Below, one piece after another: positions 253 to 64,000 of a stretch of DNA of 64,000 bases. The stretch is from Bilabrum cf. latius (Eukaryota): contig OZ237749.1 in NCBI GenBank assembly GCA_965178125.1, forward strand, positions 1,116,001 to 1,180,000. The letters are read 5' to 3'. The notes under the pieces were generated by a model. The model was not told where the DNA came from and searched no databases. It saw nothing but the letters and a program-made list of their open reading frames with translations. Position 1 is the stretch's first letter, and every line of letters starts with the position of its first letter. The position numbers were made by a program, and so were the translations under genes.

Positions 253-2332
253 TCACAGGGCTGTTTCGTGCACCACCTTGATGGAATCGATCTGCTTGCT
301 TCGCTCCTGCTCAGCTCCCCGCAGCAGAGGCCCCTCCCGCACCACCACGAGCTACACCGCCGAGTGCCTGAGCCCCGGCAGCCTCCTCTTGACCAGCGAG
401 TGCCAGGGGGGCCCGTCATGAGCGAGGCACCTCTGCATGTCCCGGTGCGACCGCATCGGGTCCAGGAGCAGCAGGAGAGCCTCCAGATCAGGGCCAGGGC
501 CAGAGCCAGAACCACCGCTGGAGCCTCGGGCGCTCCGCTTCCCAGCATGCGGGGCGGGGTGCGAACAGTCGCGGATTCCAACTGGATCTGTCAGGGACCC
601 AGTTCCAGCAGACGGGGCATGAGTAGGTGCAGATGCAGGGGCAGACGGTCGGGCTGCCGAATCCAGATCACTCGGTGGGACTGCCCCCCTTCCCGCCCAC
701 TTGTCCAGCGTGCTGGCGCTTGGACGAGGCACACGAAGAGACTAGCCAGGGCCGGGTCCACTGCCTGCTCCATCCCGTGCCCCCGCCCCTGACCCCACGC
801 TACCGGGTCGGATGATGCACGGCGTGTTGCTCGTCAGTCGCCGCAGGGCACGAAGCGATCCCGAGCCCTTGAGGCGGCAGCGCGCCTGCACCCCGATTGC
901 GGTGCGGCTGTGGCCATCGTGCTGCAAGTACACCGGGAGCGTCCTCTGCTGCTGCAGAACAGGGCCGGCATGGGCAAGCCCCACTGGCACAGGCGCCTCC
1001 AGCTGGCTGGCAGGCACGCTCTCCAGCACTTCGACCTCGCTATCGCTATCGCTATCGCTGCTGCTACTAATGCTGCCCACTTGGCCTGCCTTAGAATCAT
1101 CCAATGATCCGTCTTCGGCATCACTCGTCACATCCACCACTGGCACATGAGCGCGACTGGACGTCGGACTGCCGCTGGATGCCACCCTCGGGGAACACAG
1201 ATCGATCACGACTCCCCTGCTCTCCTCGTCCGCTGGGACCTCCCCTGGCCTAGACCTACCGCTCTCTGCACCGGCCGAGGCACCATCTGTTCCCCGGACT
1301 ATTTTCTCCCCATAACCACGGTCCCTACCACTGCTGCTGCCAGTGGCATGGCACCGCCACCCGCCAAAGTACCCCCAGAGCAGGTCGAGCAAGTGCTCCA
1401 TCGGGTCCCTCGCAGGGCTCGCCCTCCCGCGAGCCATCCCCCCACCGGCCCCCTTCACCTTCATCTTCATCTTCGCTGGCCGCGCCCTTCCGAACCCTCT
1501 GAGCTGCCGTAGCCCCTCCTTCCAGTCCACCAGCTCAGCGCCTGCCTTCCTCGCGCCTGCGATGCTGTACCCCCCACTCGCACTGGCACCGGGTGAGGAA
1601 GAGGAGGAGGAGGACGAGGAGGAGGAGGACGAAGAGGCTGAAGGTTCGGCTGCATGCACGTCCACCACCACCGCGTCGATCCTAAAGGACCGCAAGAGTG
1701 CTGCTACATCAGTAGCCCCGATCCATGCGGCGTGGCCCCGCTTGCCCCGCAAAGAGCCGCCGAAGTGCGAGGCGCCCTCTTTATCGTAGCCGAGCGACCA
1801 GGCTCGCTCAATCCAGCCCTGCAAGCCGAGCAAAGTTGGTACCCTGCCACTTCCATCAAAAAGGGTATTGCGGTACATAGGTTCTTGCATCATAGCAGAG
1901 CAGATGATCTGTACGTTTCTGTACCCGCAGGCCCACGCAGCTGACGATGCGTCGGACCTTTGAGTAAAGTGGCTGGTGCAAGGCTTTGCCAGCACGAAGG
2001 CGCTCGGTCCAGAAGTATAGGTGCTAATTGAAACGGAAGGCTGCGTAGTTATCCTGTGCTCAAGCTTCTTGACACAATCCTACGGTGGCAGGAGGTGTCA
2101 GCACGAATTGATTCGAGATCGCAAGCTGATACAAAGAGTGATCGCAACAAATGCAGCTACTGCTGCTTACTGGTACTTCAAAGGCGCGTCGCGACGCTGG
2201 GGTCTCCCAGTCATCATCGAATCTCCTTTCTCCGGAAACCTTGCCAGCTCGCTGGCGTTTGGTTGCAAGTCGGCCTCCAGATTCGAATTCCTCCGCTTGC
2301 ATGGTAAGTGCTAGCGCGTAGTCATCATCCAT
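253..2332 (-). CDS. ZUP1: ZUFSP/ZUP1-like deubiquitinase (peptidase C78 family) with N-terminal MIU-like motif
   Basis: Motifs WACGYRNVQ, WIGATDV, YLQHDGHSRT and LLLDP; N-terminus MDDDYALALTMQAEE. Intron ~2080-2170. In-frame TAG at 742-744 and 352-354, the latter in RHSAV*LV matching the family HxQYQI motif. Ends TGA 253-255. Confidence 0.8.
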
Positions 2333-2530
2333 TGCGGAAAGCAAGTCAAAGCAGCTGCTTCTACACGGCAATAAATGCCATTGTTGTCTCCCAAAATGCA
2401 GCGAGTTGCTGCTTTCCCGATGGCGGTCAATTATTGCGTTCATCTTCACTTATGGGAGAGACTTGAAAATTGTTTCAGAGTCGCGATATCGCACTATCGC
2501 ATTCCTAAATTGGTGGAAAATTGTGCGATT

Positions 2531-5500
2531 ATGAGCTAGATTGAGACCAAGGTGACACAGGATGGCGTTATTACCGTGTGCAAGACTGAATCTTGGCGCA
2601 AAGGGGCTCGTAAGTGGGGCCAAGTTGATCTAGGTCCACAGCTTGCAACATCCCGGGTAATTTGGTACCATGAGGACGAGAACAAGTGGTACGTTTGTAG
2701 AGTCAAATGCTGGGCCGCGAACCCGAGCCACAATGTGGAGAAACTGCAGAAGTCGTGGACAGATGGCGGCCAGCAACAGCTCGAGGACCTGGACGGCCAT
2801 CTTCGGTACATCGGAAAGCAAAGCCAAGTGATGCTGATGAAAACAAAGAAGCTTGTTATGCTTGGGGATTGTTCCCAGGACATATTTGGCATGTAGCTGC
2901 CCTTCCAGGCAGAGGGAGAAGCGACAGTTGAAATTGAAGAGCGTCGATCCGTATGCGTACTGGTGCGGCGAGCTGCGATGCTTGAAGTCAGACCGGGGGA
3001 TAGGATGCTGTTTGGTAAGACCGTCGACGGAAATGCCGCGCCTCGGTACTCTAGTCTCCTGTTGCGACCCCTGCGCATTCGAACCGCTGCCCCATCTCGC
3101 TTACCGCAGCTCCGGAGCCGAAGCGCACTGTCCCGGGCGGCATGCACCGTATCGCAACAACCAGAGGCGCAGATTCGGCCACTCTCGCCCAGCTGCGCGC
3201 CGCAGAGAAGCCCAGCCTGCAGCGAACCGTGTCGCAGGTGCGTCGCAGGATCGAGATCCGCAAATCGGACGGGGCCTGCGTGGGCATGCGGGTCACCTGC
3301 GTGCTAGACGGGGCCGTGCCTGCCTCCCTGAGCACCGGGAAGACGGCCATCTTCTGGCAGAGAGGAGAGCAGCAATGCGCCACCGAGGGCACGGTGCCGG
3401 GGGCCCCGCCCGATGCCCACGAGTCCGAAGATGCCTGTGACGAGTACGGCAAGCTGGGCGCGCTGCCTCCCGGGGAGCAGGAGCGGGCGGTAGAGGCAGC
3501 TCTGCGGCAGAAGATGACGCCGGGGATGCAGGAGTGGGCGGGCGAGCTGCTGCAGGAGGCCGCGCAGCAGCCCGAGGAGCAGGGGGGGCAGCTGGCCAGG
3601 GAGGTGCTGGCCCTCCTGCAGGGGGGCGGTGGGGCTGCACGGGGGTCCGCTCCAGTGGTTCCAGTGGCTGGCAGGCGCGGGGTTCCCCTGGAGCTGCCCG
3701 TGCCGATGCCTGAAAGCCAGGCGGGCAAGGAGAGGGCCAGGGGGCCATCTCGACTGAGGGACGCCAGGGTGCCGGGGGACACAGTGCTGGACGTCGTGAC
3801 GCGGGTGAGCCGTGCGCACGGCAATGCGATGCACCTGGCCAGGGAAGAGCTCTGCAGTCCCTTGCCCAGGACCCTGCTGACGGTTGCCAGGCTGCGGCCG
3901 CACAGGGCTGTGGCTGGATTGGTGGGCGTGCGGGGGCTGCCCCTCTCGCTGCGGCCTGGGGCCGAGGCTGAAGCGGGGCTGGAGCAAGAGCCGATGCAAG
4001 GCGAAGATTCGGAGCAAGGGCCGGGGCTGGCCTATGGCAGCGGGGAGCCTGCATCTGGGTAGGGTGGTGCTGGTGCTGGTGCTGGTGCTGGTGCTGGTGC
4101 TGGTGCTGGTGCTGGTGCTGGTGCTGGTGCTGGTGGTGTAATACCAGGTGCTATCGGACCACTGGGCACGCTGGGGCGGGCGCAGCAAAGCGCGGCTACA
4201 GCTAAGGGTGTATTCTTAGCGTGCGCTCCCTTGGACTGGAGGGAGTGCGAGGCGGGGGCCGGGGTGCTTGCTCCCAGTCCAAGCCAGCTGGGTGCGGGGA
4301 CTGCAATTGTGTCGCAGGCAACAGGGGAGAGCGAGAACGTGCCTGGCGCGCCCGTGGTGGACCCTCGGCTGCCGTTGGACGTGGCACAGCAGAGGGCTCT
4401 GCTGGACGGCCCCGCCGTGGGCCAGCTGCAGGCGGCTGTGGAGCGGCTGCGGGGACATGCCAGGCCTACTTTGGCGGGTCAATCATCGTCCTCCTCCTCC
4501 TCCTCCTCATCATCTTCCTCTTCTTCTTCCTCCTCGGGTGTCCAAGTGGGCGCGCAGGCAGCGGCAGAGCATGGGGCAGGGTCTGCGTCTAGGTCGAATG
4601 GTGGCCCACCCCGTACGGGTGCATCGCACGATGGCGCAAGCCGCCGGGTGATGTCCCCGATCGAGGCGGTCAGGCTTGCCTGCGACGCACTCCGTGACCT
4701 GCAGCGCGTGAATCCCCGCGAGCTGTGCTGGCATCCCCCGTCAAGGGACCCGGGGGCGGAGCAGCGCGCGGCGGCTGCTCTGTGGGCCGTGTTCCTCGAG
4801 GCCAGGGCGCTCCTGAAGATGCGGAGGGGCAGGCGAGTGCTCGAGGGGCTGCACGTCGAGGCGGCGCGGCGGCGGCGGGACTTGCTGCGCGGCGAGGAAC
4901 AGCGCACGGGGCGAGCCATGTAGGAGCACGAGAGGAGAGTGCCGACGCAGCTGGAGGCGTTCTTGCAGGCGTGTGCGCTGCTGGCCAAGTGGCACGCTGA
5001 CCTTGGCACCCCGTGCGATGCAGAGCGCAAGGGGGGCATAGGGCTGGAGGACTGGGCTGGAATGGGGAAGGTTGCACTGCGGCAGCATGTGGTCCGTTAG
5101 GACGAGGAGCTCATGCGGTCTCTGAGCGAGCTGCAGGAAACGGGGCTGGGACCCGAGCTGGCTCCCCCGGGAGCGAGGACTGCTGCAGGTGCAGGTATAG
5201 GTGCTGGTGCTGGTGCTGGTGCTGGTGCTGGGGCTGGGGCTGGGGCTGGGGCTGGGGCTGGGGCTGGGGCTGGGGCTGGGGCTGGGGCTGGGGCTGGGGC
5301 TGGGGCTGGTGCTGGTGCTGGTGCTGGTGCTGGTGCTGGTGCTGGTGCTGGTGCTGGTGCTGGTTCAAAGGCAAGCGCTGCCAGCGGATCTAGCAAGGAA
5401 TCGGGGGGAGTAGCAGGGAGTGCTGCGGGCGTATAGGGGGGTTAGGTGGGTGCATCTGCCGCTGCATTGGCTCAGCCCGCCGGTGCTAGTGGGCAGGACA

Positions 5501-5739
5501 CAACTCAGGCGAAGCCGCAGCACCGGAATAAGCAGCAGGATGAGGGTGTGGAGGAAGGGGAGAGGCCGAGCAAGAAACCGAGGGTGCAGCAGTAGTAGCA
5601 GCAGGCGCAGCCGCAGCAGAAGTAGTAGGTCTCTCCACCGGCGGGGGCGAGTGCACCGGGTGGGGACAAGCAACAGACGCAAGCCCCTGCGCCAGCTCCC
5701 GTCCAGCGTGTGGCAGGACAGGTATCTATGGAATCATGA
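2531..5739 (+). CDS. Hypothetical protein with Gly-Ala repeats and a Q-rich C-terminus
   Basis: ATG 2531, intron 3015-3109. ORF fragments 2552, 3142, 4231 and 5113 join in frame through TAG codons (11 counted). Ends TGA 5737-5739. No family recognised. Confidence 0.6.
4063..4137 (+). repeat. Coding (GGTGCT)n hexamer microsatellite encoding Gly-Ala
   Basis: Perfect hexamer run in frame in the 2531-5739 gene. Confidence 0.9.
5200..5364 (+). repeat. Coding (GGTGCT/GGGGCT)n hexamer repeat encoding Gly-Ala
   Basis: About 27 hexamer units; the central block is GGGGCT, flanked by GGTGCT. Confidence 0.9.
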
Positions 5740-6036: not shown

Positions 6037-8019
6037 TCACGAGCCCCCGCCTGCGGCCGACAAATGGGCACCCCCTTCGTCCTCCTGCCCCCACACCCTC
6101 GCCGTCCCGTCGGCCGATGCAGTGACCATGAACCTGCCCTTGGCATCGAAGCCCGCCGCCTGCACCGTATCCGTGTGCCCCTTGAGCTGAGCCACTCGCC
6201 GCCCTGACAGGAGGTCGAACACGTGTGCGGTGCCATCGTCGCACCCCGACACGTAGAGCGTCCCGCTGCGGTCTGTCCTCACTGAGTTCAGCGGGGCGTC
6301 TCCCGTGTCCAGCTGCGCGCGGCGCTTGACCATGCGCACGTCCCACACGCATATGACCCCGTCCGCGTCGCAGGAGCCCACCGTGTCCCCTCTCACCCCG
6401 AAGCACACGTCGTTCACAGCGTTTTTGTGTCCGTGGAACGTCTCCACGCACAACCCCGACCGCACGTCCCACAGGCTCACGCTCTTGTCTCCGCTGCCGG
6501 TGCACAGGTTGCAAGAGAAGGGCTGGAACACCACTGCATTCACGCTGTCCTTGTGCCCCCGCATGGTCTGCCTGCACCGCTAGGAGCTGATGTCCCACAG
6601 CCGAGCCGTCTAGTCCATGCTGCAAGACACCAGAAAGTCCCCGCTTTGGTGGAAGGCCACGTCCCATGCCGTCTGCGGGTGGTCTGTCAAAGTCAGGGCG
6701 CACCTGGCGCTCAGGAAGTCCCACACCTTGACCACACCGTCTCCCGCGCAAGTGGCCAGGTGAGTGCCCCGCGGGTGGAAGTCCACGCCCGCCACCCAGT
6801 CCCTGTGCCCCGACCCGCTCATGATCTCCTCCCCGTCCTCCAGCGCCCACATGCGCCAGGTCCCGTCGTCGGACCCGGTGGCGCACACGGGCTTGGTGGG
6901 GTGGAATGCGAGGCAGGACACGGCGTCCTCGTGGCCCTCCAGCGAGCGGAGGTGCCTGAAGCCCCGCACCTCCGGTGGCTCGAACACCACCGACAGGAAG
7001 GGGTTCTCCTGGTCCACCCCGGGCAGCTTCGAGTCGGGGCCACGCCGCCCCGGGGCACTGGCAGTGGCACTCGAAGCGGTCGCGGCTCCAGAGCCCCGAC
7101 CCGCGCCTGCACTCTTCCCGGCGGCCCCTCTAGCCCCCTTTCCCGCCCCACCCGCTGCCTACCCCGCCCTGGGGTCCATCTCTCCCGCGGCCTGCCTGAG
7201 GCTCTGCACCTGCGCCTGCAGCCGCTTGCTCCGCGCCTCGGCCCTCTCCCTGCCCAGCCGGGCGAGCATCTTCTCCTTCATGGCCAGCTCGTACTTGTCC
7301 TTGAGCTCCCGCAGGGCCGGTTCGTACTGCTCGTAGTGCCGTTTGAGCCGCTTGATGTCCACCACGAGCTTCTGTTTCTCCTGCAGCACCCGCTTGTGGT
7401 GCATCCGGTGGAAGTCGCGCTCCTTGCGGAACTGGTCCCAGGTCGCAGAGGCTTTCTTGGACACGTCCTGGCTGTGCTTTAGCTCGGTCCGCAGGCGCTC
7501 CACCCTTTCTTCTAGCTACTGGTTTCTTGCGTACACGTCAGGTACATCTCCAAGCGCGCCGCCGCCGAGCAGGCCGCGCTCCTTCCTTTCGTACCATTCC
7601 TAGTTGAATGTATCCAGGGTTCGAAGCATGCCGTTGCGAACCAAAAAATTACGAACAAAATCATCCGCGACCGTGGGTCGCGATTTGACCGCATCCTGCT
7701 GTCCTACGCCTCCATCTGCGGCACTTTCGGCTCTGCCGGAACCGCTGTATGGTTCGTCCCGCTGCTCAGCAGCAGCACTGGCAGGCGACTGCCCCGGCAG
7801 CTAGGGCTGCAGCTATCCTGCTCCAGGCTCTGCGCCGGATGCTCCAGATGCTGCCGATCCCGCTCGGTGAGCAGCCAAGATTACCTTGTCGAGATTGCCG
7901 TCGTCAAAATCGTCATCAACCTCATCGCCCAAAGAGACGCTCTTGTATTCAAACCCTTCGTCTTCATCAATCAGTCCCATATCAACGGGCTCTAGGGCGA
8001 CCACGCCTTCGCTGGCCAT
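6037..8019 (-). CDS. SPAG16: SPAG16/PF20 axonemal central-pair WD40 protein
   Basis: DDFVRNFL..MLRTLDTFN*EWYE, KERDFHRMHHKRV, then WD40 repeats. One intronless frame of 660 aa when the 7 TAGs (6580, 6610, 7159, 7516, 7600, 7801, 7813) are read through. Ends TGA. Confidence 0.9.
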
Positions 8020-12950: not shown

Positions 12951-15032
12951 ATGGCCGATTTTATGAAACTGTAGTTATAGAAACACGCGTAGGCGCAGAA
13001 GGATGACAATCCAGAGGGTGAGATGCGTTGATTTCATCGCTATGAATTCCAGTGCCCTGGTTGCGCAATTCCGATCCGCAATTATCCACCCCACTGTGTT
13101 TTGGCACCCATCGCAGCCAAATTCTGGCAGAGATTTCGCATGCCAGAGGTCAAGCAGCAGAACGGTCCCGTGACGCACGTGGACTTCTGTGAATCGGCAC
13201 CCATTCGTCTTGTTTCAACTAGCTCACTGCAACTCGGTGTTTTCTCTGCTGGAGACTTCTCATCGTACCGAGTTTACACTTCGTTTAGAGACATAGCAAT
13301 AGGGGGGTCCTTTAGGAGGGATGGCAGCCTTTTGGCTGCTGGCGGTCGAGAAGGACGGCTGAGGATTTTCACGGTTGCACAGCGAGGCGTTCTTCGCAGC
13401 CTGGTGGCTCATGGCGGTGCAATGCACGTTGCCAGGTTCTCTCACGCCGGGCAGCACGTCTTGTCCGGGGGTGACGATAGAAAGATCAAGCTGTGGGATA
13501 TCTCGACTGGCCTTGCGGTGTGCGAGCGTGAGGCTCACGGGGACTACGTCCGCTGCGCCAGTCCCTCTGGCGCTTCGAGCCAGGGATGGGCCACTGGGGG
13601 CTTTGACCACAGGGTGCGACTCTGGGACCTGCGAGCCGCATCGTCGTCGAGCAGCTCCTCTTCCGCGTCGTCCAGCAGCGCCTCCTCGAGGTCAGGTGGC
13701 GCGACCCTCGACCTGGACCACGGACACCCCGTCTCTGCCATCCAGTACCTCAGGGGCGGCTCTCTGATCGCCTCTGCGGGCGGTCCGGAGGTGAAGGTGT
13801 GGGACTTGGTGGCGGGGGGCCGCTTGCTGTGCTCGCTCAAGGCCCACCAGAAAGGGGTCACCTCATTGGCCCTGGATGGCACGGGGTCCAGACTGCTCAG
13901 CGGCTCGCTCGATGGGACCATCGCTTCCTACTCGCTGTCCGATTTCTCTATCACACACAGAATGCGGCATGCCGCTCCCGTGCTATCCCTGGCGGTGTCT
14001 CAGGACAACAGCGCACTGGCCATAGGCGGGGAGGACGGCTCGCTGGCCCTGAGGCGCAGGGTGGCGCGCGCGGAGGAAAAGGCGGAGGAGAGGGGGCGGC
14101 TGGCCATCATCCGAGGGGGCACGCAGCGGTTCTTTCTCCGGGGCAAGGGGGCGGAGGCCAGGGCAGACGACATGGTTGTGCAGGGACAGCGCAAGCCCCA
14201 GCTGCAGGCCTATGAAGTGCTCCTCAAGCGATTCGAGTATGGGGCCGCGCTGGATGCCGCGCTGCAGCAGGGCAACCCGCTGGTCGCGAGCTCGCTGCTG
14301 GCGGAGCTGGCAAGGAGGGGGGGCCTCCGGGCGGCTCTTTCCGGGCGTGATGATGCGGAGCTGGTCCCAGTGCTGGCCTTCATCACAAGGTATGTGGCGC
14401 ACCCGAGGTACTCTAGCAGCATGCAGACCGCCGCCCACGTGGTGCTGGACCTGTACGCGCCCGCCATGGGCAGGGCTCCCGCGGTGGACCGCCTGTTCGC
14501 GGCGCTGTATTCCAAGCTGGAGAGCGAGATCAAGCTGGAGCAGGAGCTGCTGAGGCTGCAAGGTGTGGTGGAGGCGCTGCTGGGGGCGCACGCGGCTGGG
14601 GCGCGCTAGGGGGTGTCGGGGGGAGTCGAGGAGGGGGAGGAGGAAGAGGAGGGGGAAGTAGAGGGGAGCGTGGGTGCCAGGACAGGGTCTGCTGGATCGG
14701 CTCGGGGTGGGCATGCCGAAGGTGAAGGTGTTGCGTCGGCGCCTGGCCTGCCGTCCACTGCTGGATCTGCGGTTGACAGCCTCGGCGGCGGGTCGAGGTT
14801 GAGTTAGAGGGCAGGCGACAGTGCCAAGAGCACAGCAACAGCTGGCAGTGGATCATCTGCAGCTGCAGCCCCGCAGTCCGACATGCTTCCTGCTCTAGAC
14901 GAGGCCACCGCGCAGCTCGCCAAGCGGGGAGACGACGGCCTCTTGTCGCCTGCTGGCGGTGCAGGCTCCTCAGCCTCTGCCTCGGGGGGCAGGGGCACCA
15001 AGCGAAAGAGAAGGCAGAAATCAAAGGCGTGA
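12951..15032 (+). CDS. UTP15: U3 snoRNP-associated protein UTP15 (WD40 plus UTP15 C-terminal domain)
   Basis: FRRDGSLLAAG, HGDYVRC, LDHGHPV, ALSGRD..ELVPVLAFI. Exon 1 is 12951-13017 with TAGs at 12972, 12978 and 12990. Intron 13018-13116. Further TAGs at 14607 and 14805. Ends TGA. Confidence 0.9.
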
Positions 15033-15109
15033 TTCGCTTGAGGTGCTAGAAGCGGAAACAGTTTGCTGCCGTTGAAGTCAAAATGCAGCGATTGACCTGT
15101 GTTTGTTGC

Positions 15110-28704: not shown

Positions 28705-28829
28705 TTGTTCCTGCAGCTACCAACGAAATAAATTCGAACATTTCCTATAACCATCGGTTTGGTTTCACCTCGTGCGCGCACTTGGTTGCGGGAAGAGCCA
28801 GCTAGGCCTCTATACGAACTTGCATCCAT

Positions 28830-38517: not shown

Positions 38518-38889
38518 AGAAGCTGCGGCACTAGTGTTGCAAAATCAAGGTTTAGATGTGGTGGGACTGAAACGCAAACTGCTGCTGGGTTCTATCGCGT
38601 GTGCAAACTTGAAGTGCACAAGCAGGCTGCACGATTGGTTTCCTCCTGCTCTCAACATTAATCTCTACACCATCTTCGTCCCATACAACTGCTATTTATG
38701 CTAAATGTTCAGTTACTCACCCATAATTCAGATAGTAGGCTGCTCCTTTCCAAAGAAATCGCTCTGTTGCAGCTCGTCGGCTGTGTTGTCTTGATTTGCG
38801 GAACTTCATCACCCTCGCGCGGCGTCCACCGCGGCGCCCTCGCAAGGTTCCGCTGCATTGGACGATCCCCACGTATTTCGTCAAGTACC

Positions 38890-46300: not shown

Positions 46301-46516
46301 CTTATCATCAGGCTCAAGACCCTGGCGCTTGCGCCATCTGCTCTCTCCCATCATGATAGCCGCGCTACCTAAGTCTTCCAGTATGCCCTCATCTTCCCAA
46401 CCATCTTGGGCCCCTGAGTCGCCCATCTATCGCTAAATGAATCTACTCTCGAACGGCAACTTCGATGACAATTTCGAACGTTCGTCGCCTCGAACGTTGC
46501 TCGCCGTATGGGCCAT
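43361..46516 (-). CDS. TTLL3: TTLL3/TTLL8-like tubulin glycylase
   Basis: FFPRCFDL, WVVKPASKSRGRGI, QKYIERPLLI..KFDIRQW, HLANNSVQK, FEMFGYDFM..PWLIEINSSP. TAGs at 46433, 46427, 46250, 43931 and 43385. Ends TAA. Confidence 0.88.
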
Positions 46517-46557
46517 GGCTGCAAAATTCAGGACTACTATAACTTGTTTCAAATTAA

Positions 46558-48534: not shown

Positions 48535-48693
48535 CCGCCCGCGCATGCATGCATGAGCTGTGTACAGCATGCAATAGTTTGAACAAGCTGTCTGCATCGC
48601 ACGTGAAATGCCCATGTTTTTGCATGCAAACACACAGTCAGCAGTGCAACAACCACTCAACTACTCGAAAGCACTGCACTGTGGTGGCCGTGC

Positions 48694-52319: not shown

Positions 52320-54134
52320 TCACATGCGCATGTGGTTTGTTCTGCGGCGGAACCAGTTGTAGTCGGGCAGCTCGTGCGAGTTGCCCACCGCGGCCAGAGC
52401 CAGGTCGTGGTCAGTCACCACCGCGCTGGCGGCCTTCTGCAGTGAGTCCAGGCTCACGGCATCCACGCGAGCAAACACCTCGGCTGGGGTCATGCGCCGC
52501 CCGTATGTGAGCATCTGCCGCCCGATGTCCTCGAATACCTCGGTGGATCCGTCCAGCTGCATAAGCATCTTGGCCTTGAGCTGGGCCTTGCCGCGGGCCA
52601 GCTCGTCCTCGTTCACCTCGTAGGCCAGGCGGGCCACCTCGTGCATCACGTGGTAGGCGCACATCCACTGCTGGGTGGGTGGGGCAGTCCAGTGCACGCC
52701 GAACAGGCCAGTGTCCTTGTACGTGGTGTTGAAGGCAGACACGGAGTGGGCGAAGTTGCCCTCTGCCAGCCTCCTGCAGAGCCCAGAGGCCATGTTGACT
52801 CCCTGTCCCATGGACCGGTCCCACTGGCCAAGGAGCTGCTGCATCACCATCAGCGGGAAGGCGTGCGCGTCCGTCCAACCGCCAGTCTAGAAGGCCACAG
52901 CCACGTGCGTGAGCGGCTGGGCATCGTCCCGCATGCGCAGGTCGGATCCGACGAAGTGCGCCGGGTCGGAAGGCGCCGTCACGAGGGCGCCATCCTTGGC
53001 ATCGTGCCCAGCCAGACTGCCGAAGTGCTTGTCGGCCAGCGACGCAAGCGAGTCGTGGTCCACTGCGCCTGCACCAGCCACCACCACACGGGGGCCCGTG
53101 TAGTGCGTTCGGATGTAGGAGCGCAGGTCCTCTGCCTGCAGCCTCTGGATGTTCTCCCTGGGGCCCAGGATGGTCTTGCCAAGGCCAGCGTCGGGGAAGG
53201 CAGTCTCGTGCAGCTTGTCGAAGACGACCTCCTCCATGCTCTTCTCCACCTCCTCCATCTCGCGGAGGATCACGCCCCTCTCCTCCTCGATCGATGCACT
53301 GGCGAACTCGCTGTCCTGCAAGATGTCGGCCAGAATCTCCATGGCCACCGGCACGTCCTGCTTGAACACCTTGGCGAAGTATACGGTGTGCTCGCGGCTC
53401 GTGTACGCATTCAAATGGCCGCCAATGTTCTCAATCTGCTCTTCCAACTGGTTCCGAGTGCGTGACTTAGTGCCCTTGAAAATCATATGCTCCAGGAAGT
53501 GAGCAACGCCGTTGTTAGCTTCGGTCTCGTACCGGCTGCCAGCATCCACAAAGACACCAACGGTTGCTGTCTCTCCGTGACCACCCTGCGACACTAATAC
53601 GAAGACAATAAACCACATAAACACAATCACCGAAAATTTGCAGCACCAGATCGCCGTCGTGCGCCTTGCCTCACCTCAGATGCGACGCGCACGCCATTCT
53701 TCAAGGTTGATACTTCAGTGGCAGGAGCGTTCAGTACGTGCGGGGGGAACTTTTCTGCTAGACTCTGCTCCTGCTGAACAGGGCGAGCTGACGAGAAGGC
53801 CCTGATGCGAGACCGCAGGCAGGTCGCAAGGGTTGACTGCGAGCATCTTGTGAACGTCAAAAAGCTTTGTGGGAATCATAGCTGCAGCAATGCAGCAAAT
53901 GCGGGCTCGAAGGACAAACACTACAATCTATTTGCAGCATACGGTGACAACTCGGAAAAGCCCAAATCAGTGCGTCTAGCATGCGACAAAAACAATGGTG
54001 CTTGATGTAGCAGATCGCTGAACTGATGCCCTTCGTACCACACGAATTAATATCGTCATTCAGCGGGACGAATTTGACGTAAAACTTACCGAGCGCCCTT
54101 GGACGCGCCTAATAGCGCCTCGAATTGCTGCCAT
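52320..54134 (-). CDS. PMPCB: Mitochondrial processing peptidase beta subunit (M16 family)
   Basis: [23 protein letters not shown] (HxxEH), [24 protein letters not shown]. Introns 53837-54089 and 53586-53674. TAG at 52887. Ends TGA. Confidence 0.93.
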
Positions 54135-54301: not shown

Positions 54302-54775
54302 ATGTCTGCATCATCATCTTCAGCGTCTCCCGGCGCAGGGGAGATGATAAGGCTGCCACCCCACGTCTCTAGAGTACTGTTCGTGAAGCATCTCCCCTTC
54401 AAGATTACTGCCAAAGAAATGTATGATGTGTTTGGAAAGTACGGAGCTATTCGCCAAATTAGGCTCGGAGACCCTGTAAATAAGAAAACGCGGGGGACTG
54501 CTTTCGTTGTATATCAAGATATCATCGATGCAAAGAGCGCAGTGGACCATCTTTCGGGCTTTGCAGTTGGGGGTAGGTACCTGCTGGTGATGTACTATTA
54601 GCCACATAAGAAGCGCCGGGTAAAAACATTGGAGGAGCAGCGCGCAGAGCTCGAGGCACTCAAGCGTAAGCACGGTCTTGACGAGGAGATGGACGGGTTG
54701 CCGACGAGAGCTGGTCTTGCAGCAAGTCGCGAAACAGAATCAACAATGAGTCTTGCGTCATCAAGCAAGCTCTAA
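54302..54775 (+). CDS. SF3B6: Splicing factor SF3B6 (p14)
   Basis: [43 protein letters not shown] (TAG at 54599). Ends TAA. Confidence 0.95.
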
Positions 54776-54806
54776 GTATACGTCATTACGAACGGGGTTC
54801 CTGTTG

Positions 54807-57800
54807 TCAGCCAGGCATGCCGTCCCTATTGGGCAGCGAGCTGATTCGATCGTCATCTACGCGGTAAACGTGGGGCCCGCTCGTCTGCCTATCAGGGGCC
54901 AACCGCGAACCCTCCCCATCCAGCCTCTGGATGACCAAACCCCTCACAAGCAGCGTAGGCTTGGATTCCTGTGAGCCACGTTCGCGAGGCAAGTCCGGTA
55001 GTTTCCGAACATGCGTGCTGCGCATCGACTCCAGCTCGCGTCTGTGCGCGAGCCCGACAGAGGCAGCCTGACCCTCTCGGGCAGATGAGAGCGCTGCACG
55101 GCGCCGCTCAGCGTGAGACCATGCCACTGAAGCCGCTGCATACATGTGTGCAGGCCGGCTGCGATGGCATGCAGGGGTATCTGGTCGAAAGGTACGACGA
55201 TGTGCAGCACCTGCGCTTGGGTCAGTTGATGCTGCAGTGTCCACCGCCCGGATTCCAGCCAGCAGGCAGGCTGCTACGCGTGCCTCTGGAGGTGGGTTGT
55301 AGTTGTCGTCGGGATGGCTCGTGGAGGCATATCTGTGGCACGACTCTGCCTCGAGGGCTACCGCACGGACCCACTCAGGGTTGGCCCGTGAGAATGAGAG
55401 AAGGGCATGGGCGATGCTGCCGGGGCAGCGCCCTGCAAGGCCATGACCGTGCAAGTTGGCCTGCATGCGCGTCCCTCGGTACTCGCCCTCCGATTGAAAG
55501 AGGCCGTCATAGACAGGCTGGCGATGCCTATGGTTCTAGCCCGCAACCGAATGCTCCGCTTGCCGACGCTGGTCCGAGGCCCCACTGCCCGCCGCTTGGC
55601 TGCTTGAGGTTGCATTGAGTTCACCTGTTGGTTTCTAGTCCTGTGCACATTCCCACCCGGCCTCCTGTGCTCCGACTGCAGCTTGCCCCTGCACCAAAGC
55701 GCCCCAGAGCTAGGTCTTGCACGCCACGAGCTGTGCGTGCACGACAGGGTCAGGGTCAAGTTCCAAATCCATGAGGCTATTATCACACACTGCACCAATC
55801 CCAGGCAGTACCACTGTCCTTTCCTCCAGCACGCGCGCAATCCTGGGTGCTTTTCTGGGCAGCACCACAGCCAGCAGCACCGGCAGGAACAGCACTCCAC
55901 CGATCTCTGAGAGTAACAGCCACAGCCTGTGCTTCAGATGCTCCGAAGAAACCTCGTCCCGGACGGAAGCATGCGACGACTTGGACAGCCAATGCTCCGG
56001 CACCCTGTGGAAGTATGCCGCCATATTTCGCATGGAACCCACCGGATCCAGCCAGGCGCTCTCGTGCCCTGGCACCATGCCTCGAGCTGCGGCGACGATC
56101 GCTGCCAGGATGGCAGCGTACCAGACAAGGGAGAATCCCCCAGCAGGAATGAATAGACTGACCGCAAGTCTATTCGACAGTAGGGACGGGAGCACGGCAC
56201 ATGCCAGCAGGGCGCTTGCGATGAATGCCACCGTCCGGGCGACCGCTGCCATGCAGGGGCTCTGGAACTGCTACAGGTATCGGTCGGCATGCACAGCAGC
56301 TGCGCCAGAGCGCTGCTGCAGCGTGTGTGGCATCTCGTTCACCTCGCGCATGCGCCACAGAGACCAAGGAGACCATTTGCGAGGTCCAAAGTAGTCACCG
56401 GAAGCTCGTGCCTCGCCAATGTGGTGCAGCATAGAGTACAGCAGCAGGCCCAGCAGCACCACCGGCAGTGCAAATACCGACACTAATGCTAGCACCAGTA
56501 ACCTGTACCTCAAGCTAGCGTGGTCCTTGAGAAAATCGCGACGCAGTGCATGATCCGCCGATGCGGACGAGACCATTGGAGCGAGAAAGGCCTGCTGCAT
56601 GACCCACTCCAGCGCACCGCCCACCGGAAAAGAAATACGGATGCGGCACATGGACTCATCGTCGCTGATTTCATGTGTATCTAGCTTGTGCGCTGGCTCG
56701 GGCCGACCAGGACCCACAGCTGCGGCCGAGCGGTTCGGAGCTGCAGCCACGCGTGCTTCGGAGCTGACTGCGCCATCTCGCATCTCTATGTATGCGCTGC
56801 TACCCTAGTAGCTGCTATTATACGACTACATCCCAGCAGCTACACTGCCCAATCCCCCATGCTTAAGGTCAGACACACTCGCAGACGTGGACCATGCCGG
56901 GCTCTGCATTGAACCGCCTGCTCCTGCCTCGCTACTCTCGCACCCCGCCCTATAGCATGCAGATGCCACGGCTGATTCTATCTCGCTTGTGTCTCGGCCA
57001 CAAATTCCGCCGCAGCATACAAAAGCACCGATAGCCCCAGCAGCTCTCCACAGGTCTGCTGGGAGCTGCATCTCTAGTTCATTCAGCACGCCAGTGTGGG
57101 CCAGCATCAGGAAGTAGTTCTCTTGCCGGAGGATGCGGACTGCCACTTCATGAGGTGCCAGCAGCAGCTGTTTCAGCTCGTAATGATGGGTTTCATCCAC
57201 AGCTAGGCTGGGTGTTGGGTGTGCTTCGGGCAGTCTCGAAGAGCTCTCCTCGCCACGGGGCGCATCGGATGGAGCGGCTGTGGCTGCATCGCCTGACGTT
57301 GCTCCGAGGGACGACGAACGGGGCGCGTCCCAATCCTAGAATACCCTCAATGATCCACTGTCGTTATCATTGTTTGGGACATCGCCTGCAGAGGTGTACC
57401 CCGTGGTCGACCCGTCCGTTGATGTGTCGTTGTCGTACCCGCCTGCCAGAGCAAGGGCACTGCCGCTCCTTTCTTGCCCCGCGTCTGAACCATACTGCTG
57501 CTAAATGCGCCATGGCTCGCCTTGCAGAGGTCTCCAATTCGCACGGATGCGTAGACGACCGGATGCGACTACCTTTTCAACTTGTTCCACAATGCTGGGC
57601 CAGCTGGAGGCCTGCAGCCCGGCCTCATCCAGGCCCAGGCACTTCTCGAACAGCAGGGCCACTGGCCTTGCGTGCGCAAGCTGTATTGTAGCCCGTACTC
57701 CAGCACCCATTGTGACGATTATCATGCCGATCAGATACGCCAGCGCGACTCCTCTCCTGAACCCCTGGGGGTCGTCACGGAGTACACCGGCCCCTCGCAT

Positions 57801-58688
57801 CGCAGGTGCAACCCAATCAGTTTCAAACAGATGCTTCGAGGCATGCGTGCATGCAGACGTGTCTCCCTCAGATGGGGCGGATGGTACATACAGGGTGCAG
57901 TTTCCTGCCGCCGCCGAGCCCAGCGCAGCACGAGGCCAGGCAAGGTCCGGCTGCCCGTTGGCCTCCTCGGCGCAAGCAACGATTGCAGGCCAGTTCACAG
58001 CCCCCACTAGCAGGAATGGCAATACTGCTGTTGCTAGCAGTGTGATCACCTGCGATGCTTTCCTCGCAGCCATGGGCCCGAAGCCGCCCTCGTAAAAGAG
58101 ATAGTACACTCTTCGCCAGAACTCGTCCAGATCATTGCCTGGCTCCAGCCATGCTACCTATGATTCAGGAGTCTCGCGTTCATATTGCGCAGAAAAGACG
58201 CCTGTCTTGTCTGTACTTCGTGTTTTGCGTATTCTTACCGATCGTTTGCTTTCTTCTCTGGATCCGAACGTAGATTCCTCCGAATGCTCGATGCGTCTTC
58301 CCGTTCTACCAGGTGACCTGCTGGGAGAGCCTTCACCAAAGTTCAATCCCATATTATCCCAGCCCGGGTACGAATCTTCAGATTCCGATCTCCCGAAGCC
58401 CTGCAGCTGCGGTGAATCGGGAGTTTTAGCCTGTATTCTGCTTGCATCCGTGTTGTAATGCAGCCGAGCTTCGCTTGCAGCGGCATGTCCCCCAGACACC
58501 TTGAGACGCTCGCGCTACCCAAACAAAAGTGCACCCAATGCTGACTGGTGGCTTGAATGGCCTACAGTTTGATCCTATGGGAACAGACGACTGGATTCAT
58601 CGGCTAACTAAGCACCCGAGGACGGCCCAGACTACCTAGCCACTTCATTTAATTCCACCCCTTGCCGTGGTGACACTATTCTCTGCAT
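54807..58688 (-). CDS. ATG9: Autophagy protein ATG9
   Basis: DLDEFW.RVY..FYEGGF, RILRQENYF, R.WSP...WRMREVNEMPH, HRVPEHW, GIGAVC, LLSF...NPEW. One frame with ~13 TAGs. Ends TGA. Confidence 0.87.
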
Positions 58689-59120
58689 TAATTGAATAAA
58701 AATGGTGAATTTGTGGCGAAGTGTACTCATTGGAAGGCGTGAGACTCTAAAGCAGACGCCAGACATGCAACGCTCGTGGCCTCACATCGTGCTGTGATCT
58801 CGACAAGTTGTCAAATACATCATCATCCATAGACTTTTATCGTAGTATTCAATAAAGAGAGTAAACAAAGCGATTAAGTTTCTATTTCAGTTAGGAACGG
58901 AGCCGGAAAGATTTTAGTCGTTGTGAACCAGAGAAGGTTCGCCGAGGTGAAGGGCGGTTCGCTCGCCGTGATCGCCATGCTGTGGACGTATATTCAAGGC
59001 TCAAAACCATGCATACATACGGCTATACGAATATCAACGTCTGGTGTACATGCACAAATCCCCGTCAGACCCCAACCATCACGTCCCAGCATGCACCCGT
59101 CTGTGCATGAGGCAACACCT

Positions 59121-60013
59121 TCACTGGCGACCGCTGTAGCGCAGGGGGTTGGAAGACAGCACCGCGATCTTGCTCTTGTCCTTGGCGATGTAGTTGCGCT
59201 TGGGGGCAGCCCACCTCTCGCCGATGTCGTGGTGGTCGCGCATCGGCTTGGCGCGCTCGCTCTTGTCCCACGTCACGTCAGGGGACGTGAAGAGATGGCG
59301 GCTGGACATGTACCCACACCTGCGTGAGTTTGTGACGATGTACTTCAGAATCTGGCAACAATACTCCAGAGCAGTGTAGCACAGAGTGGTATCGGCACTG
59401 CGCTGATGCAGTGATGCGAAGCTAAGAAACCGTAGAAACTTACCAAGCAACGGCGACTGCGCAGCTCGCCAGCACAGGGTATGTCTGCAAATAGTGATAA
59501 AAAGCGAACGCGCCGAAAAATGGTTGATTTTCGGAAGCGTAGATGGCACAGCCATGCCCAGGGAAGAAGCATCGTCAGCGCAACGGAGCCCAGCTTCACG
59601 ACTCGGTGCGCCACGCCCTTGCCGATAGAGAAAACGAGGCTATGATTTTATCAGCATCGTTGCGAACGCGCCTTGCGTAAGGCACTTGGGGGCCCCCAAA
59701 TCGGAAGATGCGGCGTTCCAAGACTATGCCTCGACAGCCACCGTGTAGGCCGAACAGCTTCCAATGTGCTCAGCTTTGGAGGACCTGGTGTGGTCAAATA
59801 TGTCCCATACATTCCAGCCGATTTAATTGCGTTTACATCGCTTCTACACCCGAAACTACAGCTGGTGAGCAAGTGCCGTTTGCACAGCCAAAGAGAATCC
59901 GACCGCACACCCATAACTCAAGTGCTGCAAGGACAGCATGCAATTCTACAACTTACACCGGAATCGCTGAACCAGACGCGGCGGATGTTGTTCGAAACGA
60001 CGCGGCCAGACAT
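59121..60013 (-). CDS. NDUFA4: NDUFA4/B12D family small mitochondrial membrane protein
   Basis: Spliced product MSGRVVSNNIRRVWFSDSG|TYPVLASCAVAVAW|CGYMSSRHLFTSPDVTWDK. Introns 59485-59956 and 59320-59443. Ends TGA. Confidence 0.75.
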
Positions 60014-60241
60014 GCTTGCTTCGGCTTTAAGTTGAGTTGTGTGGACGACCTGCGATTTGGGCTCCGCGATTTGCGACCATTCCATTTTTGATAACGTGTG
60101 CCTTTGATATACAGATCTGCAAGACGTTTGCAAGTGCAAGTGGCAGTCTTCGAATAGAGGCAGTAGACACTTTACTTCGGTGCTATATTAATCTGAGCTA
60201 GTGCCTATTTCCTTCTGTACGGGGATTGTCTGCACGTCATC

Positions 60242-63200
60242 ATGTACATTTTCCTTGCGAAGAAAATAGCTATCCCGAAGCAAGCCAGGCTATCTTGTGT
60301 GGCATGGAACTCAGACTAGGGATGGATAGCATGCGGCGGGGAGGGGCCATTATTAAAAGTGCTGCGGCTAGAGGCGCAGAAAGGTGATGTTCCGATGGCT
60401 AGGGGCATCGCTGCGCCTTCCAGCCTCGGTCTATCTCAAACTCTTGAAGGCCACAAGTGTAAGTACAACATTAGTCCACTGCATCCACGTGTGTTATCCC
60501 ATGATGTGTTATGAATTGATATAGCCCGGCTGCTGTGTGCAAACGCGCTGTCCCGGCGGCTACCAACATCCTGGCTCCACTGGCGATCAGGATTGGTACG
60601 TTTGCTATGCCCCATGCCTCGCAGCTGGCACCGTGCAAGTTGCGGCGTGGAATGCTCTATACAAGAAGCTTACCACAAGCGATTCAACTGGCATGATTAT
60701 AGTGTGGGTGCATCACCGGGGCAAGTGGTTCGAGGAAATGATAAACAACCGCAATACTACCGTTGTAGTGGACATGCGATGGAATTCCGAGGGCAAGGAA
60801 ATCTGCATTGCGTATAGAGATGGCCATGTGATTGTTGGTGGTGTCAAGGGGAACAGGCTGTGGGGCAAGAATCTTGGCTACGAGCTTAGTAAGGTCGTGT
60901 GGTCGCCCGACTGCCGCACGCTAGTGTTTGTCACTGCTGATTCGCAAGTCCACACGTACACCCGCGAGGGCATGCGCACTGGAGAGGTTCGCCTGGCTGG
61001 AGTGAAGCCCGGGGCAGGCGCTGGTTCCAGTGACCCTGTCGCCGCCCTTGATTGGTACGACGGCGCGGAGGGCTACGAGGACCCGAGCGCGCCCTCGCTG
61101 GCCATCGCCTTCGAGAGCGGGCGGATGCAGATGATGCGCAGCACGACGGATGAAGAACCCATGCTCGTAGAAACCGGTTTGCGGATTCGATAGGTGACTT
61201 GGAATTGCGCTGGCACGGTCTTGGCTGTGGCTGGGGTCCCGGCAGGGGCAGGGGCAGGCGCACCCGGAGCTGCTGCGGGCGGTGCTGCAGCCAGTGACAA
61301 CACGGGCCCTCCCTCCGTCGTGCAGTTTTATTCGCCCTATGGTCAGCATGTGCGCACGCTGCGAGTCCCCGGAGAGGTCAAGTCTCTGTCGTGGGAGGGT
61401 GGCGGCTTGCGGCTGGCCATGGCGGTGGGGCACCACGTGTACTTCGCCAACGTGCGGCCGGACTACAAGTGGGCCGTCTTTGGAGACACGGTGGTGTACG
61501 CCTATGCGCGCCCGGACAGGGCCGAGCAGTGCCTCGTGTTCTGGGACACGGAGAGCGGGCAGCGGCACGAAAAATTCCTCAAGCACCTGCTGGGCGTGCA
61601 TGCTGCGCCTGACGGAGACCACTGTCTCGTGGTCACTCGTGCTGATGACGGATCGGCGGCAGCTTCCATGAAAGGCGGACTCGTCAGCGGACTGGGCGTG
61701 GCAGGCTCTGCAGCCGCGGGCCAGTTCCTTCTTGTCCTCTTCGACGCGATCGGCAGTCCGGTGGAGACACGCTTCCTGCGCTGGCGGCCACAGCACATAT
61801 CTGTCACCAAGACTCACGTGATCGCCGCCTCGGAGAGTACGGTGTACGTCTGGCAGTACCGGTCTGGACTGGATGCGAGTGGAGCTGGGGCTGGCTCGGC
61901 CTCTGCAGCGGTAGGCCACAGCATGGCGCAGGCCTCTTCGTCCGGAGAAGGTGGCCCTGGGGCAGGGGCGGGGGCGGCCTCGAGCGGAGCTGGCGGCAGC
62001 GCTCTGCGTCTAAGGGGTGTCCGGGAGCGGTACTTCCACATCGACGACGCCATGGGCCTCGACGCAGCCGGCAAGGCCTCGGGGGGGCGGGATGCGTCTG
62101 CAGCAGCCGCAGGGGGTGGAGGCTTGCGGCCGGCAGGGTATGACACGAAGGATCCGGTGAGCTGCGTCACCGCCAGCAGGTAGTGCATGCTAGTGGGTCG
62201 GGCATCAGGCGCGGTGTCAAGGTACACCCTGCCGCACCTGGTGCAGGATGCAGAGTACAGGCTGCGCAAGCCAGCAGCCAGGCTGGCTCTCAACTGCGAC
62301 AGTACAGTGTTCAGTGTGGTGGACGACTCGGGCTTCCTGTCTTTCTTCGACACGAGGAGGCACCGGGTGGACCCGTCCACCGGACAGTCCGTGGAAGGCG
62401 AGCAGCTCCCCGAGGAGCGCAAGGATGCGTGGGCCATGCGGTGGGCCGAGGACTCCCCGGAGCTGTTCGCGTCGATGGAGAAAACCAAGATGATTGTGTA
62501 CAGGGACTGCAAGCCAGGTGACCCGGTGCTGTCCAGCGGCTACCTGGGGCGGTTCAGGGATCTCCGGGTGCAGGTGGCCATGCTGGACGACGTGATGGTG
62601 GAGCCGGACCTGGCCAAGGTGAGTGACTGCGTGCTCTTCCACGAGACCAAGTCGCTCGAGGAGGCGTAGGTGCTCATCGAGTCAGCGTCGCCGCAGAAAG
62701 CCGTGCAGTACATCCAGGAACATTCGCACCCCAGGCTGTGGCGGCTGCTGGCCGAGGGCGCCCTGGAGCGGCTCGATTTCGCGACTGCAGAGCAGGCCTT
62801 TGTGGGCGGGCAAGACTATGCCGGGATCTAGCTCGTGAAGCGGTTGCGGCGGCTAGGTCATAACGCCAAGCAGAAGGCCGAGGTGCACGTGCACTTTGGC
62901 AGGTTTCAGGACGCAGAGGACGCCTACCGCGGGATGGACAGGCTGGATCTCGCGATCGAGATGCGGGCCAGGGTGGGTGACTGGGCTCGAGCACTGCAGC
63001 TCGCATCGGAGGGAGAAGCAGACGGGGTGGATCGGATTGTGGCTGAGTGCAGGCGCCGCATAGGGGACCAGCTGATGGACCAGCAGCAGTGGACCAGGGC
63101 CGCGGAGGAGCTGGCCAAGACGGATGACAAAGCTGCGCTCATCAAGTGCTACCGCGCCATGGACGACTTTGACGCGCTGGCCGGCCTCGTGGAGGAACTC

Positions 63201-64000
63201 CCGGATGAGTCGCCGCTGCTGGTGGAGCTCGGGAGGGCGCTGCAGTCCGCGGGTGTGGCCCAGCCAGCCGTGGAGGCTCTGCTCAAGGCGGGCTAGCCGC
63301 AGGCAGCCGTGGACTGCTGCGTGCTGCTCAACGAATGGGACAAGGCCATCGAGCTGGCGCAGACGCATGACTTCCCGCAGGTGGAGTCTTTGCTCAACAA
63401 GTACGCCGCCCGGCTCCTGGCCAAGGGTCAGGTGATCGCCGCCATCGAGCTGTACCGCAAGGCTGGCAGACATGCAGAGGCTGCCCACTTGCTAGCCCAG
63501 CTCGCGGAGAGTTCCTTGGCTGCTCGCAAGTCCCCGCTCCGTGCGAAGAAGTTGTTCGTGCTGGCCGCACTGGAGGTGGAGAGCTTCCGGCAGCAGGCGG
63601 CGGACAAGGCCGTCGAGGATGCTACTGCTAAGGGCGGGGGCGCGGTCACTGCGGCAACCGCCACTGCCGCCATGACGGCCACCATGATGGACACCATGCT
63701 GCGGACTAATGCCACGCTCTCGGCGTCCACTGTCGGGGGCGAGCGAGCAGCGAAGCGGGCCGCGCGCACGCTGGACAACGCCTGGCACGGAGCCGAGGCT
63801 CTGCACTTCTGGATGCTTGGGCAGCGGTAGCTGTACGCGCGAGAGTTTGATGCGGCGATGGCGACTGCGGCAAGGCTTGCGGCACTGTACGAGGACGTGC
63901 TCCCTGCGAGGGACGTGCACAGCCTGCTGGCCCTCGCTGCCTTCAGAGCCGGTTTCTTCGGTCTTGCCTCCAGAGCATTCATCCGACTTGAAGCCGTGGC
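60242..64000 (+). CDS. WDR35: WDR35/IFT121 intraflagellar transport complex A subunit (3' partial)
   Basis: [62 protein letters not shown]. Intron 60459-60624. TAGs at 60317, 61191, 62181, 62667, 62829, 63294 and 63828. Runs off the window end. Confidence 0.95.

Follow-up and report, generated by a model that had tools for sequence, protein, structure and literature searches.

Does UAG still terminate translation in the nuclear genome represented by contig OZ237749.1 (assembly GCA_965178125.1, Bilabrum cf. latius)? The question is raised by a stretch of 64 kb of this contig (positions 1,116,001 to 1,180,000 of the forward strand, in the following called the window), where the standard code breaks genes which are fused, with the same frame on both sides, when TAG is read as a sense codon. 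UAG and UAA usually change their meaning together, and codes splitting them are rare. The window is gene-dense, intron-poor eukaryotic nuclear DNA with a G+C content of 56-65% in each 4-kb bin; genes lie on both strands, and TAG is found as a sense codon on both. The DNA is very probably derived from the nucleus of a GC-rich, intron-poor heterotrophic stramenopile near Cafeteria, in which UAG encodes glutamine, whereas UGA, the main stop, and UAA terminate translation.

The in-frame TAGs were counted in 24 gene models, each starting at its first ATG. These models comprise 15,780 codons and contain 78 in-frame TAGs, present in 20 of the 24; with the transcript-defined start of ATG9 the total rises to 82, and SF3B6 contributes one more. 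An initial annotation of the window had counted about 100 in 24 of 29 models; the in-frame TAGs are real, but their number is smaller than given there. Neither TAA nor TGA occurs in frame in the same 15,780 codons, which necessarily follows from the way in which the frames were defined, these two triplets being their limits. The +1 and +2 frames of the 24 models contain 219 TAG, 69 TAA and 481 TGA, and the window as a whole 853 TAG, 398 TAA and 1437 TGA. Under the standard code there is no open reading frame (ORF) of at least 800 amino acids. Eight such ORFs appear with TAG as a sense codon, three with TGA and none with TAA, and reading TAA as sense gives no gain above a few codons in any of the 20 longest ORFs. 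Since ORFs in GC-rich DNA are lengthened by a sense reading of TGA as well, lengthening alone was rejected as proof, and the case for TAG as a sense codon therefore rests on homology. A choice of frame by composition, using the G+C content at third codon positions (GC3), proved ambiguous, since GC3 is high in antisense frames too.

Homology is informative in this respect. Pfam domains and alignments with homologues continue through the TAGs, so that the earlier statement that gene fragments rejoin in one frame at these sites was correct. In the USP14-type deubiquitinase the single TAG faces Gln in the 'itkQsptl' segment of human USP14 (5gjq_x, 2ayn_A and 6iik_A), with homology on both sides. 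In the SPAG16/PF20-like gene the TAG at 6610 is located inside a WD40 repeat, where all five proteins of the Cafeteria clade have Gln.

The remaining two triplets behave differently. Stops of 23 complete frames are TGA in 18 cases and TAA in five, one of the 23 (the GET4-like frame) ending in mid-domain. Thus, as had been noted initially, only TGA and TAA end the genes, although with other counts than the 21 and 7 of 28 reported then. Agreement between stop and C-terminus was checked where homologues allow it, the TAA ends being compared less closely than the TGA ends. For MPP-beta, which ends at TGA, the alignments reach query residues 447-450 of 451 and residues from 483 of 487 to 494 of 495 in the homologous chains. 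The SPAG16 frame, also ending at TGA, stops a median of 5 residues past the ends of 120 homologues. The genes with Pfam support served as the training set for a codon-use score, which amounts to -0.041 per codon in the 150 nt past TGA and TAA stops, compared with 0.233 in internal coding segments. Matching C-termini and non-coding downstream codon use together support the proposal that UAA and UGA were kept as stops. A code in which both UAA and UAG (UAR) encode Gln (NCBI table 6) does not describe the window, in which five frames end at TAA and 15,780 codons contain no in-frame TAA. The same holds for a code of the Condylostoma or Blastocrithidia type with all three stops as sense codons: no conserved gene among the window's models is interrupted by an internal TGA or TAA.

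The alternative that survives best is a dual meaning, in which UAG is read as Gln inside genes and still stops some genes, depending on context. Context-dependent use of this kind has precedents in Condylostoma and karyorelict ciliates, and a comparable one is UAA in Blastocrithidia. In seven of the 19 TAG-bearing genes the last TAG is at most 45 codons from the next TAA or TGA, whereas about 4.4 would be expected by a hand estimate, and this excess is a point against a UAG that is sense throughout. The distance is as short as 8 codons in the TTL ligase gene and 9 codons in the HEAT gene, and both TAGs of UTP15 are located C-terminal to UTP15_C, its last conserved domain. However, the pooled tails of up to 45 codons after the last TAG (175 codons) score 0.166 per codon and are thus coding-like, in contrast to the value given above for the regions past TGA and TAA. 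For the 139-codon tail after the first TAG of UTP15 the log-likelihood ratio per codon is 0.135 in frame versus -0.051 and -0.25 in the other frames. Furthermore, homology to human SF3B6 persists for 28 residues past the TAG of SF3B6, and in the TTL ligase the alignment with 5vlq_A extends about 75 residues beyond the TAG at 43931, which is located inside the TTL domain. The coding-like tails and the homology past the TAGs in these two genes show that TAG is at least usually a sense codon. As no model requires a TAG stop to fit the ends of its homologues, we consider a dual meaning improbable, although a few genes may stop at TAG.

Which amino acid is inserted at UAG was addressed with a codon-to-column test, in which the translated queries, carrying X at each TAG, were aligned with homologues of WDR35 (113 of 120 listed, those with at least 1000 amino acids), SPAG16 (120 among the matches listed) and ATG9 (137 of 150 listed, those with at least 450 amino acids). 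The score is the summed log-odds per amino acid over columns that are at least 80% filled. When applied as a control to the 61 sense codons, the test returned the standard amino acid for 60, TCT being a near tie between Thr and Ser. Over 13 columns TAG gives Gln +11.56, followed by His -5.37, Arg -7.7, Lys -9.7, Ser -16.4 and Leu -24.3. This Gln score was not attained once in 20,000 random draws of 13 non-Gln columns, and it is within the 5-95% range of sets of CAG and CAA columns (4.8-22.6). The mean Gln frequency is 0.242 in TAG columns, close to that in CAG (0.281) and CAA (0.200) columns and above that of seven other codons (0.02-0.08); hence the enrichment to be expected at TAG columns if UAG encodes Gln, as the initial annotation had pointed out, is indeed found. 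At three of the seven TAG columns of WDR35 Gln is the commonest residue (75, 70 and 103 of 113 homologues).

The sequence context of the codon points in the same direction. Of 142 residues adjoining a TAG, 15 (10.6%) are Gln or TAG; the corresponding share is 93 of 923 (10.1%) for CAG and 4.2% for all residues, so that both codons occur to a similar extent in Gln-rich runs. Four of the ten TAGs in the low-complexity frame 3019-5739 are within a Gln-rich run, as two adjacent pairs, and six of the seven TAGs of the PRP40-like gene are found in its Gln-rich N-terminal part.

A further comparison is provided by relatives. When ATG9 was used as the query of a protein search, short predicted proteins of Logan assemblies were retrieved which are 90-92% identical to the ATG9 of the window (P0241, P0291 and P0391). 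One of them, P0241 (218 amino acids, 92%), starts right after one TAG of the window and ends right before the next (57504-58157, minus strand). Standard-code gene calling would produce these limits in a relative that carries stops at both of these positions. A metagenome scan with the ATG9 core of the window found no relative, whereas a scan with the protein P0242 of a relative found one contig, L001. This metagenome contig of 2,364 bases with 57% G+C consists of one open ATG9 frame of 788 codons, which contains nine TAGs and neither TAA nor TGA; the other five frames contain 8-25 TAA or TGA. Identity with the ATG9 of the window is 46% over the whole alignment and 69% for the 247-residue core fragment P0242. 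Since L001 shows the same TAG pattern, the trait is not limited to one assembly. Three TAGs of L001, located in strongly conserved blocks, face CAG in the window.

Several observations weigh against glutamine and in favor of another residue (His, Arg, Lys, Glu, Leu, Ser or Tyr, some of which UAG or UAR is known to encode in other organisms) or of ambiguous decoding. The Gln signal stems mostly from WDR35, with seven columns and a Gln score of +11.0. SPAG16 alone (four columns) slightly prefers His (1.4) to Gln (0.5), and ATG9 alone is uninformative, since most of its nine TAGs examined are in variable regions that cannot be aligned and two columns pass the filter. At single sites other residues are opposite the TAG: Arg at one column of WDR35 (104 of 113 homologues), Asn in human SF3B6, Val or Leu in the solved relatives of the TTL ligase (TAG at 43931), and Glu (three chains) or Lys (one chain) in MPP-beta. 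The other TAGs of L001 face Arg (two), Gly (two), Ser (one) and Tyr (one) in the window. For the TTL ligase the homologue search yielded one protein only, rabbit TTLL8, and thus no column statistics. This spread opposite single TAGs is, however, the same as for any codon at variable sites, and in the pooled columns Gln leads His by 17 natural-log units, with the remaining residues lower still. As the Gln frequency of TAG columns equals the level of CAG and CAA, the placement in Gln-rich runs resembles that of CAG, and TAG replaces CAG at the three conserved ATG9 sites of L001, a residue other than Gln appears very improbable. Glutamine, as proposed initially, is therefore supported as the best reading of UAG by the aligned homologues, although mainly by those of WDR35.

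The mature transcripts are represented by contigs from public sequencing runs. Four of these runs are near-identical, of genomic type and filed under one organism label; three more (X5, X6 and X7) come from two other studies with two other labels and contain 76-90% of the sampled words. Contigs of one genomic run (X1) and of the three further runs were compared with 54500-64000 of the window. Those of X5, X6 and X7 skip four stretches that are bounded by GT..AG on the coding strand, one each in ATG9 and WDR35 and two in the small B12D/NDUFA4-type gene between them (Table 1), whereas X1 covers the region in one unspliced piece with all four introns retained. Because of this difference the contigs of X5-X7 are regarded as spliced transcripts; it should be kept in mind as a reservation that these runs are not recorded as RNA and that their status is deduced from the intron-less contigs. 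Joining of the exons restores a canonical N-terminus of WDR35 and the start of ATG9. One X5 contig (record 8) covers 54500-58682 and 58786-58910, and another (record 12) covers 60186-60458 and 60625-64000 with no differences from the window. In ATG9 (54500-58682) the contigs of X5, X6 and X7 likewise show no differences, and alternative letters or indels are absent from all four runs over 54500-64000. All 13 TAGs of ATG9 and all seven in the part of WDR35 within the window are unchanged in the spliced contigs; X6 and X7 support ATG9 fully and WDR35 in part. CAG at these sites or removal of the TAGs by splicing, named by the initial annotation as contrary evidence, was thus found at none of the 20 positions. 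Introns, RNA editing and assembly errors are thereby ruled out for both genes, and UAG is a sense codon in the mature mRNA of ATG9 and WDR35. That the TAGs in general are untranslated, as parts of unrecognised introns, sites edited to CAG, or products of pseudogenes or faulty assembly, has a negligible probability: although the window has four confirmed introns, and first exons of RPL3 and MPP-beta outside the main frame, the TAGs of ATG9 and WDR35 survive in the spliced contigs of three runs without other letters or skips, the frame is the same on each side of every TAG with conserved blocks adjoining, the assemblies of four runs match the window, and L001 repeats the pattern.

Two observations on these runs may be added. 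The exact 54500-64000 stretch occurs in runs under three organism labels from three studies, and the intron-less ones are labelled differently from the genomic runs; the flagellate may grow alongside other labelled organisms. In WDR35 (61241-61977, plus strand) contigs of all four runs join 61977 and 61241 with the same seven extra letters between them, and many loose contig ends are found at 61241-61262 and at 61957. This pattern is probably due to cross-matching of Gly/Ala-rich repeats from other loci.

The identity of the source organism was approached with two marker trees. A FastTree phylogeny of WDR35 places the query next to Cafeteria roenbergensis as its sister (support 100) within a stramenopile group, both sequences being flagged for unusual composition. 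The corresponding tree of SPAG16 joins it as sister lineage to a Cafeteria clade of five members (92) within a clade of 13 sequences (98). With IQ-TREE (LG+C20) the SPAG16 query is found in a clade of ten sequences with Cafeteria (SH-aLRT 98) inside a stramenopile clade of 19 sequences (96), whereas the sister order is not settled by this tree. Both markers thus support a stramenopile in a clade with the bicosoecid Cafeteria as the source, in line with the earlier guess. The Cafeteria proteins are about 45-49% identical to SPAG16 and WDR35 of the window, which therefore represents a distinct, fairly distant lineage.

How UAG could have come to be read as Gln may be outlined by analogy. Decoding would be carried out by a tRNA-Gln with the anticodon CUA, differing from tRNA-Gln(CUG) by a single change in the anticodon; such a tRNA would read UAG but not UAA. 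The release factor eRF1 would have lost recognition of UAG and kept that of UAA and UGA, as in other UAG-only codes. New TAG codons would arise mainly from CAG by a C-to-T change, which is in keeping with the sites at which L001 has TAG and the window CAG. ARAGORN detected no tRNA genes within the window, a search with Rfam found no rRNA and no family at gathering score, and eRF1 is not among the genes identified by the Pfam scan of 32 frames. In the 24 models Gln is encoded by 497 CAG, 88 CAA and 78 TAG codons, TAG thus accounting for 11.8% of 663. Its share differs between genes: none of 41 Gln codons is TAG in RPL3, CAP, dyskerin and riboflavin synthase, whereas TAG makes up 71 of the 575 Gln codons of the remaining genes (Fisher p = 0.0096). 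GC3 is higher in RPL3, CAP and dyskerin (0.85-0.92) than in any other gene of the window, and amounts to 0.56 in riboflavin synthase. Avoidance of TAG in the most codon-biased genes fits a minor codon that is read by a low-abundance tRNA.

The code proposed here is not new as such. In the available text of PMC11687900, a paper of 2024, a Gln meaning of UAG alone is given for Iotanema spirale, Protocruzia tuzeti, Hartmannula sinica and Trochilia petrani, a Leu meaning for an uncultured rhizarian and for phyllopharyngean metagenome-assembled genomes, and a Ser meaning for Scotinosphaera, while UAR encodes Gln in many ciliates, ulvophycean green algae, Hexamita, Streblomastix and Amoeboaphelidium. 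The same portion of this source describes eRF1 of UAG-only codes as having lost recognition of UAG and kept UAA and UGA. Iotanema spirale has the same code, with UAA and UGA as stops, according to the consulted sections of PMC5304391 (Panek et al. 2017) and PMC11687900; it is a fornicate (Metamonada), whereas the window belongs to a GC-rich stramenopile with TGA as its main stop. In the ciliates Hartmannula sinica, Trochilia petrani and Protocruzia tuzeti, to the extent covered by the accessible part of PMC11687900, UAG is widely used for Gln and UAA kept as a stop, with several independent origins. As alveolates these species differ from the present stramenopile, and they prefer UAA as a stop, in contrast to 18 TGA and five TAA in 23 frames here. 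UAR codes likewise represent the capture of stops by Gln, presumably through a mutated tRNA-Gln, but UAA is a sense codon there and a stop here. In codes with UAG as Leu or Ser, UAG alone has changed and UAA is a stop, as in the window, but the residue differs, Leu and Ser having the two lowest of the scores given above.

Among named organisms Cafeteria roenbergensis is the nearest relative in both trees. Like the window its genome is GC-rich, and full-length SPAG16 and WDR35 are predicted from it. The part of 10.1101/751586 that was available describes a GC-rich (about 70%) bicosoecid stramenopile genome and names a non-standard code for the mitochondrion only (UGA = Trp). In the full-text literature searched, from which subscription journals and supplements were mostly and entirely absent, respectively, and in which a prior report may thus have been missed, no nuclear code variant was found for any stramenopile; the variants mentioned for this group in the available portions of PMC12152300 and 10.1101/751586 are mitochondrial. 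The suggestion of an independent, previously undescribed stramenopile case made by the initial annotation agrees with this result.

The genes on which these conclusions are based, together with their neighbours, are listed in Table 1. For gene identification 32 frames were scanned against Pfam at the cut-off of this database. Twenty frames contain a family at cut-off, two are matched below it only (GET4 and TPMT), and ten have none. The identified proteins are WDR35/IFT121, a SPAG16/PF20-like WD40 protein, a TTL-family ligase, ATG9, a PRP40-like WW/FF protein, a USP14-type deubiquitinase (UCH), UTP15, a HEAT-repeat protein, MPP-beta, a DNase II domain protein, a C78 peptidase, a C2-WW-PDZ protein, RPL3, dyskerin, a CAP C-terminal domain, riboflavin synthase, SF3B6, clathrin light chain, a lipoyl/Kgd4 protein and a small B12D/NDUFA4-type protein. 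Hence, the names UTP15, PRP40-like, SF3B6, MPP-beta and USP14-type assigned initially were retained. ORC3, in contrast, could not be confirmed: the frame in question (18324-21662, plus strand) has neither a Pfam family nor a sequence match in the PDB.

Table 1. Positions of the genes discussed, their introns and their in-frame TAGs in the window (position 1 is its first nucleotide)
Feature	Position	Strand	Remarks
Unknown low-complexity protein	3019-5739	+	stop-to-stop frame; 10 TAGs
SPAG16/PF20-like flagellar WD40 gene	6037-8019	-	stop TGA
SPAG16 TAGs (7)	7813, 7801, 7600, 7516, 7159, 6610, 6580	-	in frame
UTP15	13032-15032	+	stop-to-stop frame; TAGs 14607, 14805; stop TGA
RPL3 main exon	23022-24338	+	no TAG
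CAP	24804-25427	-	no TAG
PRP40-like gene, WW and FF domains	30489-33641	-	stop-to-stop frame; 7 TAGs; stop TAA
Riboflavin synthase	33674-34609	+	no TAG
Dyskerin	37063-38544	-	no TAG
USP14-type deubiquitinase	39070-40965	+	stop-to-stop frame; one TAG, 40039-40041; stop TAA
TTLL3/8-type tubulin ligase	43361-46660	-	stop-to-stop frame; 5 TAGs, 46433, 46427, 46250, 43931, 43385; stop TAA
MPP-beta (M16 peptidase) main exon	52320-53675	-	one TAG, 52887-52889; stop TGA
SF3B6 (p14)	54302-54775	+	one TAG, 54599-54601
ATG9	54807-58830	-	ATG 58830; stop TGA 54807-54809; Pfam ATG9 9.3e-69
ATG9 intron	58683-58785 (103 nt)	-	GT..AG; absent from one contig per run in X5, X6 and X7, retained in X1
ATG9 TAGs (13)	58632, 58608, 58575, 58515, 58158, 57501, 57336, 56826, 56805, 56271, 55710, 55635, 55536	-	in frame
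B12D/NDUFA4-type small gene	59024-60036	-	PF06522, 22.3 bits (cut-off 21.5); no TAG; ends TAA or TGA
B12D/NDUFA4-type introns (2)	59318-59441 (124 nt), 59485-59956 (472 nt)	-	GT..AG
WDR35/IFT121	60242-63998, off window end	+	ATG 60242; Pfam; spliced model
WDR35 intron	60459-60624 (166 nt)	+	GT..AG; skipped in spliced contigs
WDR35 TAGs (7)	60317, 61191, 62181, 62667, 62829, 63294, 63828	+	in frame

Some further features of the window were noticed. Many frames contain long Gly-Ala dipeptide runs together with Ser or Gln homopolymer runs, which derive from microsatellite-like DNA (e.g. 3019-5739 and 18324-21662); the latter frame also harbors a unit of about 25 residues in four tandem copies. 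SF3B6 and the 3' end of ATG9, located on opposite strands, converge and overlap (54302-54809), and record 8 of X5 spans the whole coding region of SF3B6. The B12D/NDUFA4-type gene has by far the highest contig depth in 54500-64000, up to about 700 in X5, and an unspliced contig of 532 nt is present in its region as well. No supported gene was found in 46558-48690. A plus-strand frame of 658 codons in this region (46558-48534) extends into the 5' end of the TTL gene, lacks a Pfam family and shows a weak coding signal (0.028 per codon, GC3 0.58), all of its five TAGs being within the first 105 codons. On the minus strand a frame 3' of the TGA of the HEAT gene is open for 190 codons and contains five TAGs. 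The GET4-like frame (27277-28750 region, plus strand) matches positions 89-149 of 257 of the profile only, with its TGA in mid-domain. The remainder of this gene is probably encoded by a next exon in another frame (28055-28750), and the TGA is likely intronic.

The code with UAG as Gln is thus already known, and the present case is probably its first occurrence in stramenopiles. We are slightly inclined to go further and to regard it as the first nuclear code change in this supergroup, a reassignment of UAG to Gln in a GC-rich, TGA-dominant lineage near the bicosoecids that would be common to at least two to three divergent, mostly uncultured lineages, i.e. the window, the relative with about 92% identity in ATG9, and L001. 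If this is true, a whole clade of environmental flagellates is mis-translated in public protein sets. Standard-code gene calling cuts the proteins at every TAG; consequently, annotation, phylogenomic matrices and the assignment of metagenomes and metatranscriptomes need the right code. UAG-only codes are informative on how the release factor and a suppressor tRNA separate two codons. A stramenopile case would add an independent origin in a supergroup without a nuclear variant in the literature searched, and a GC-rich genome terminating mainly at TGA, as opposed to the UAA-preferring ciliates, would provide a useful contrast for codon-capture and ambiguous-intermediate models.

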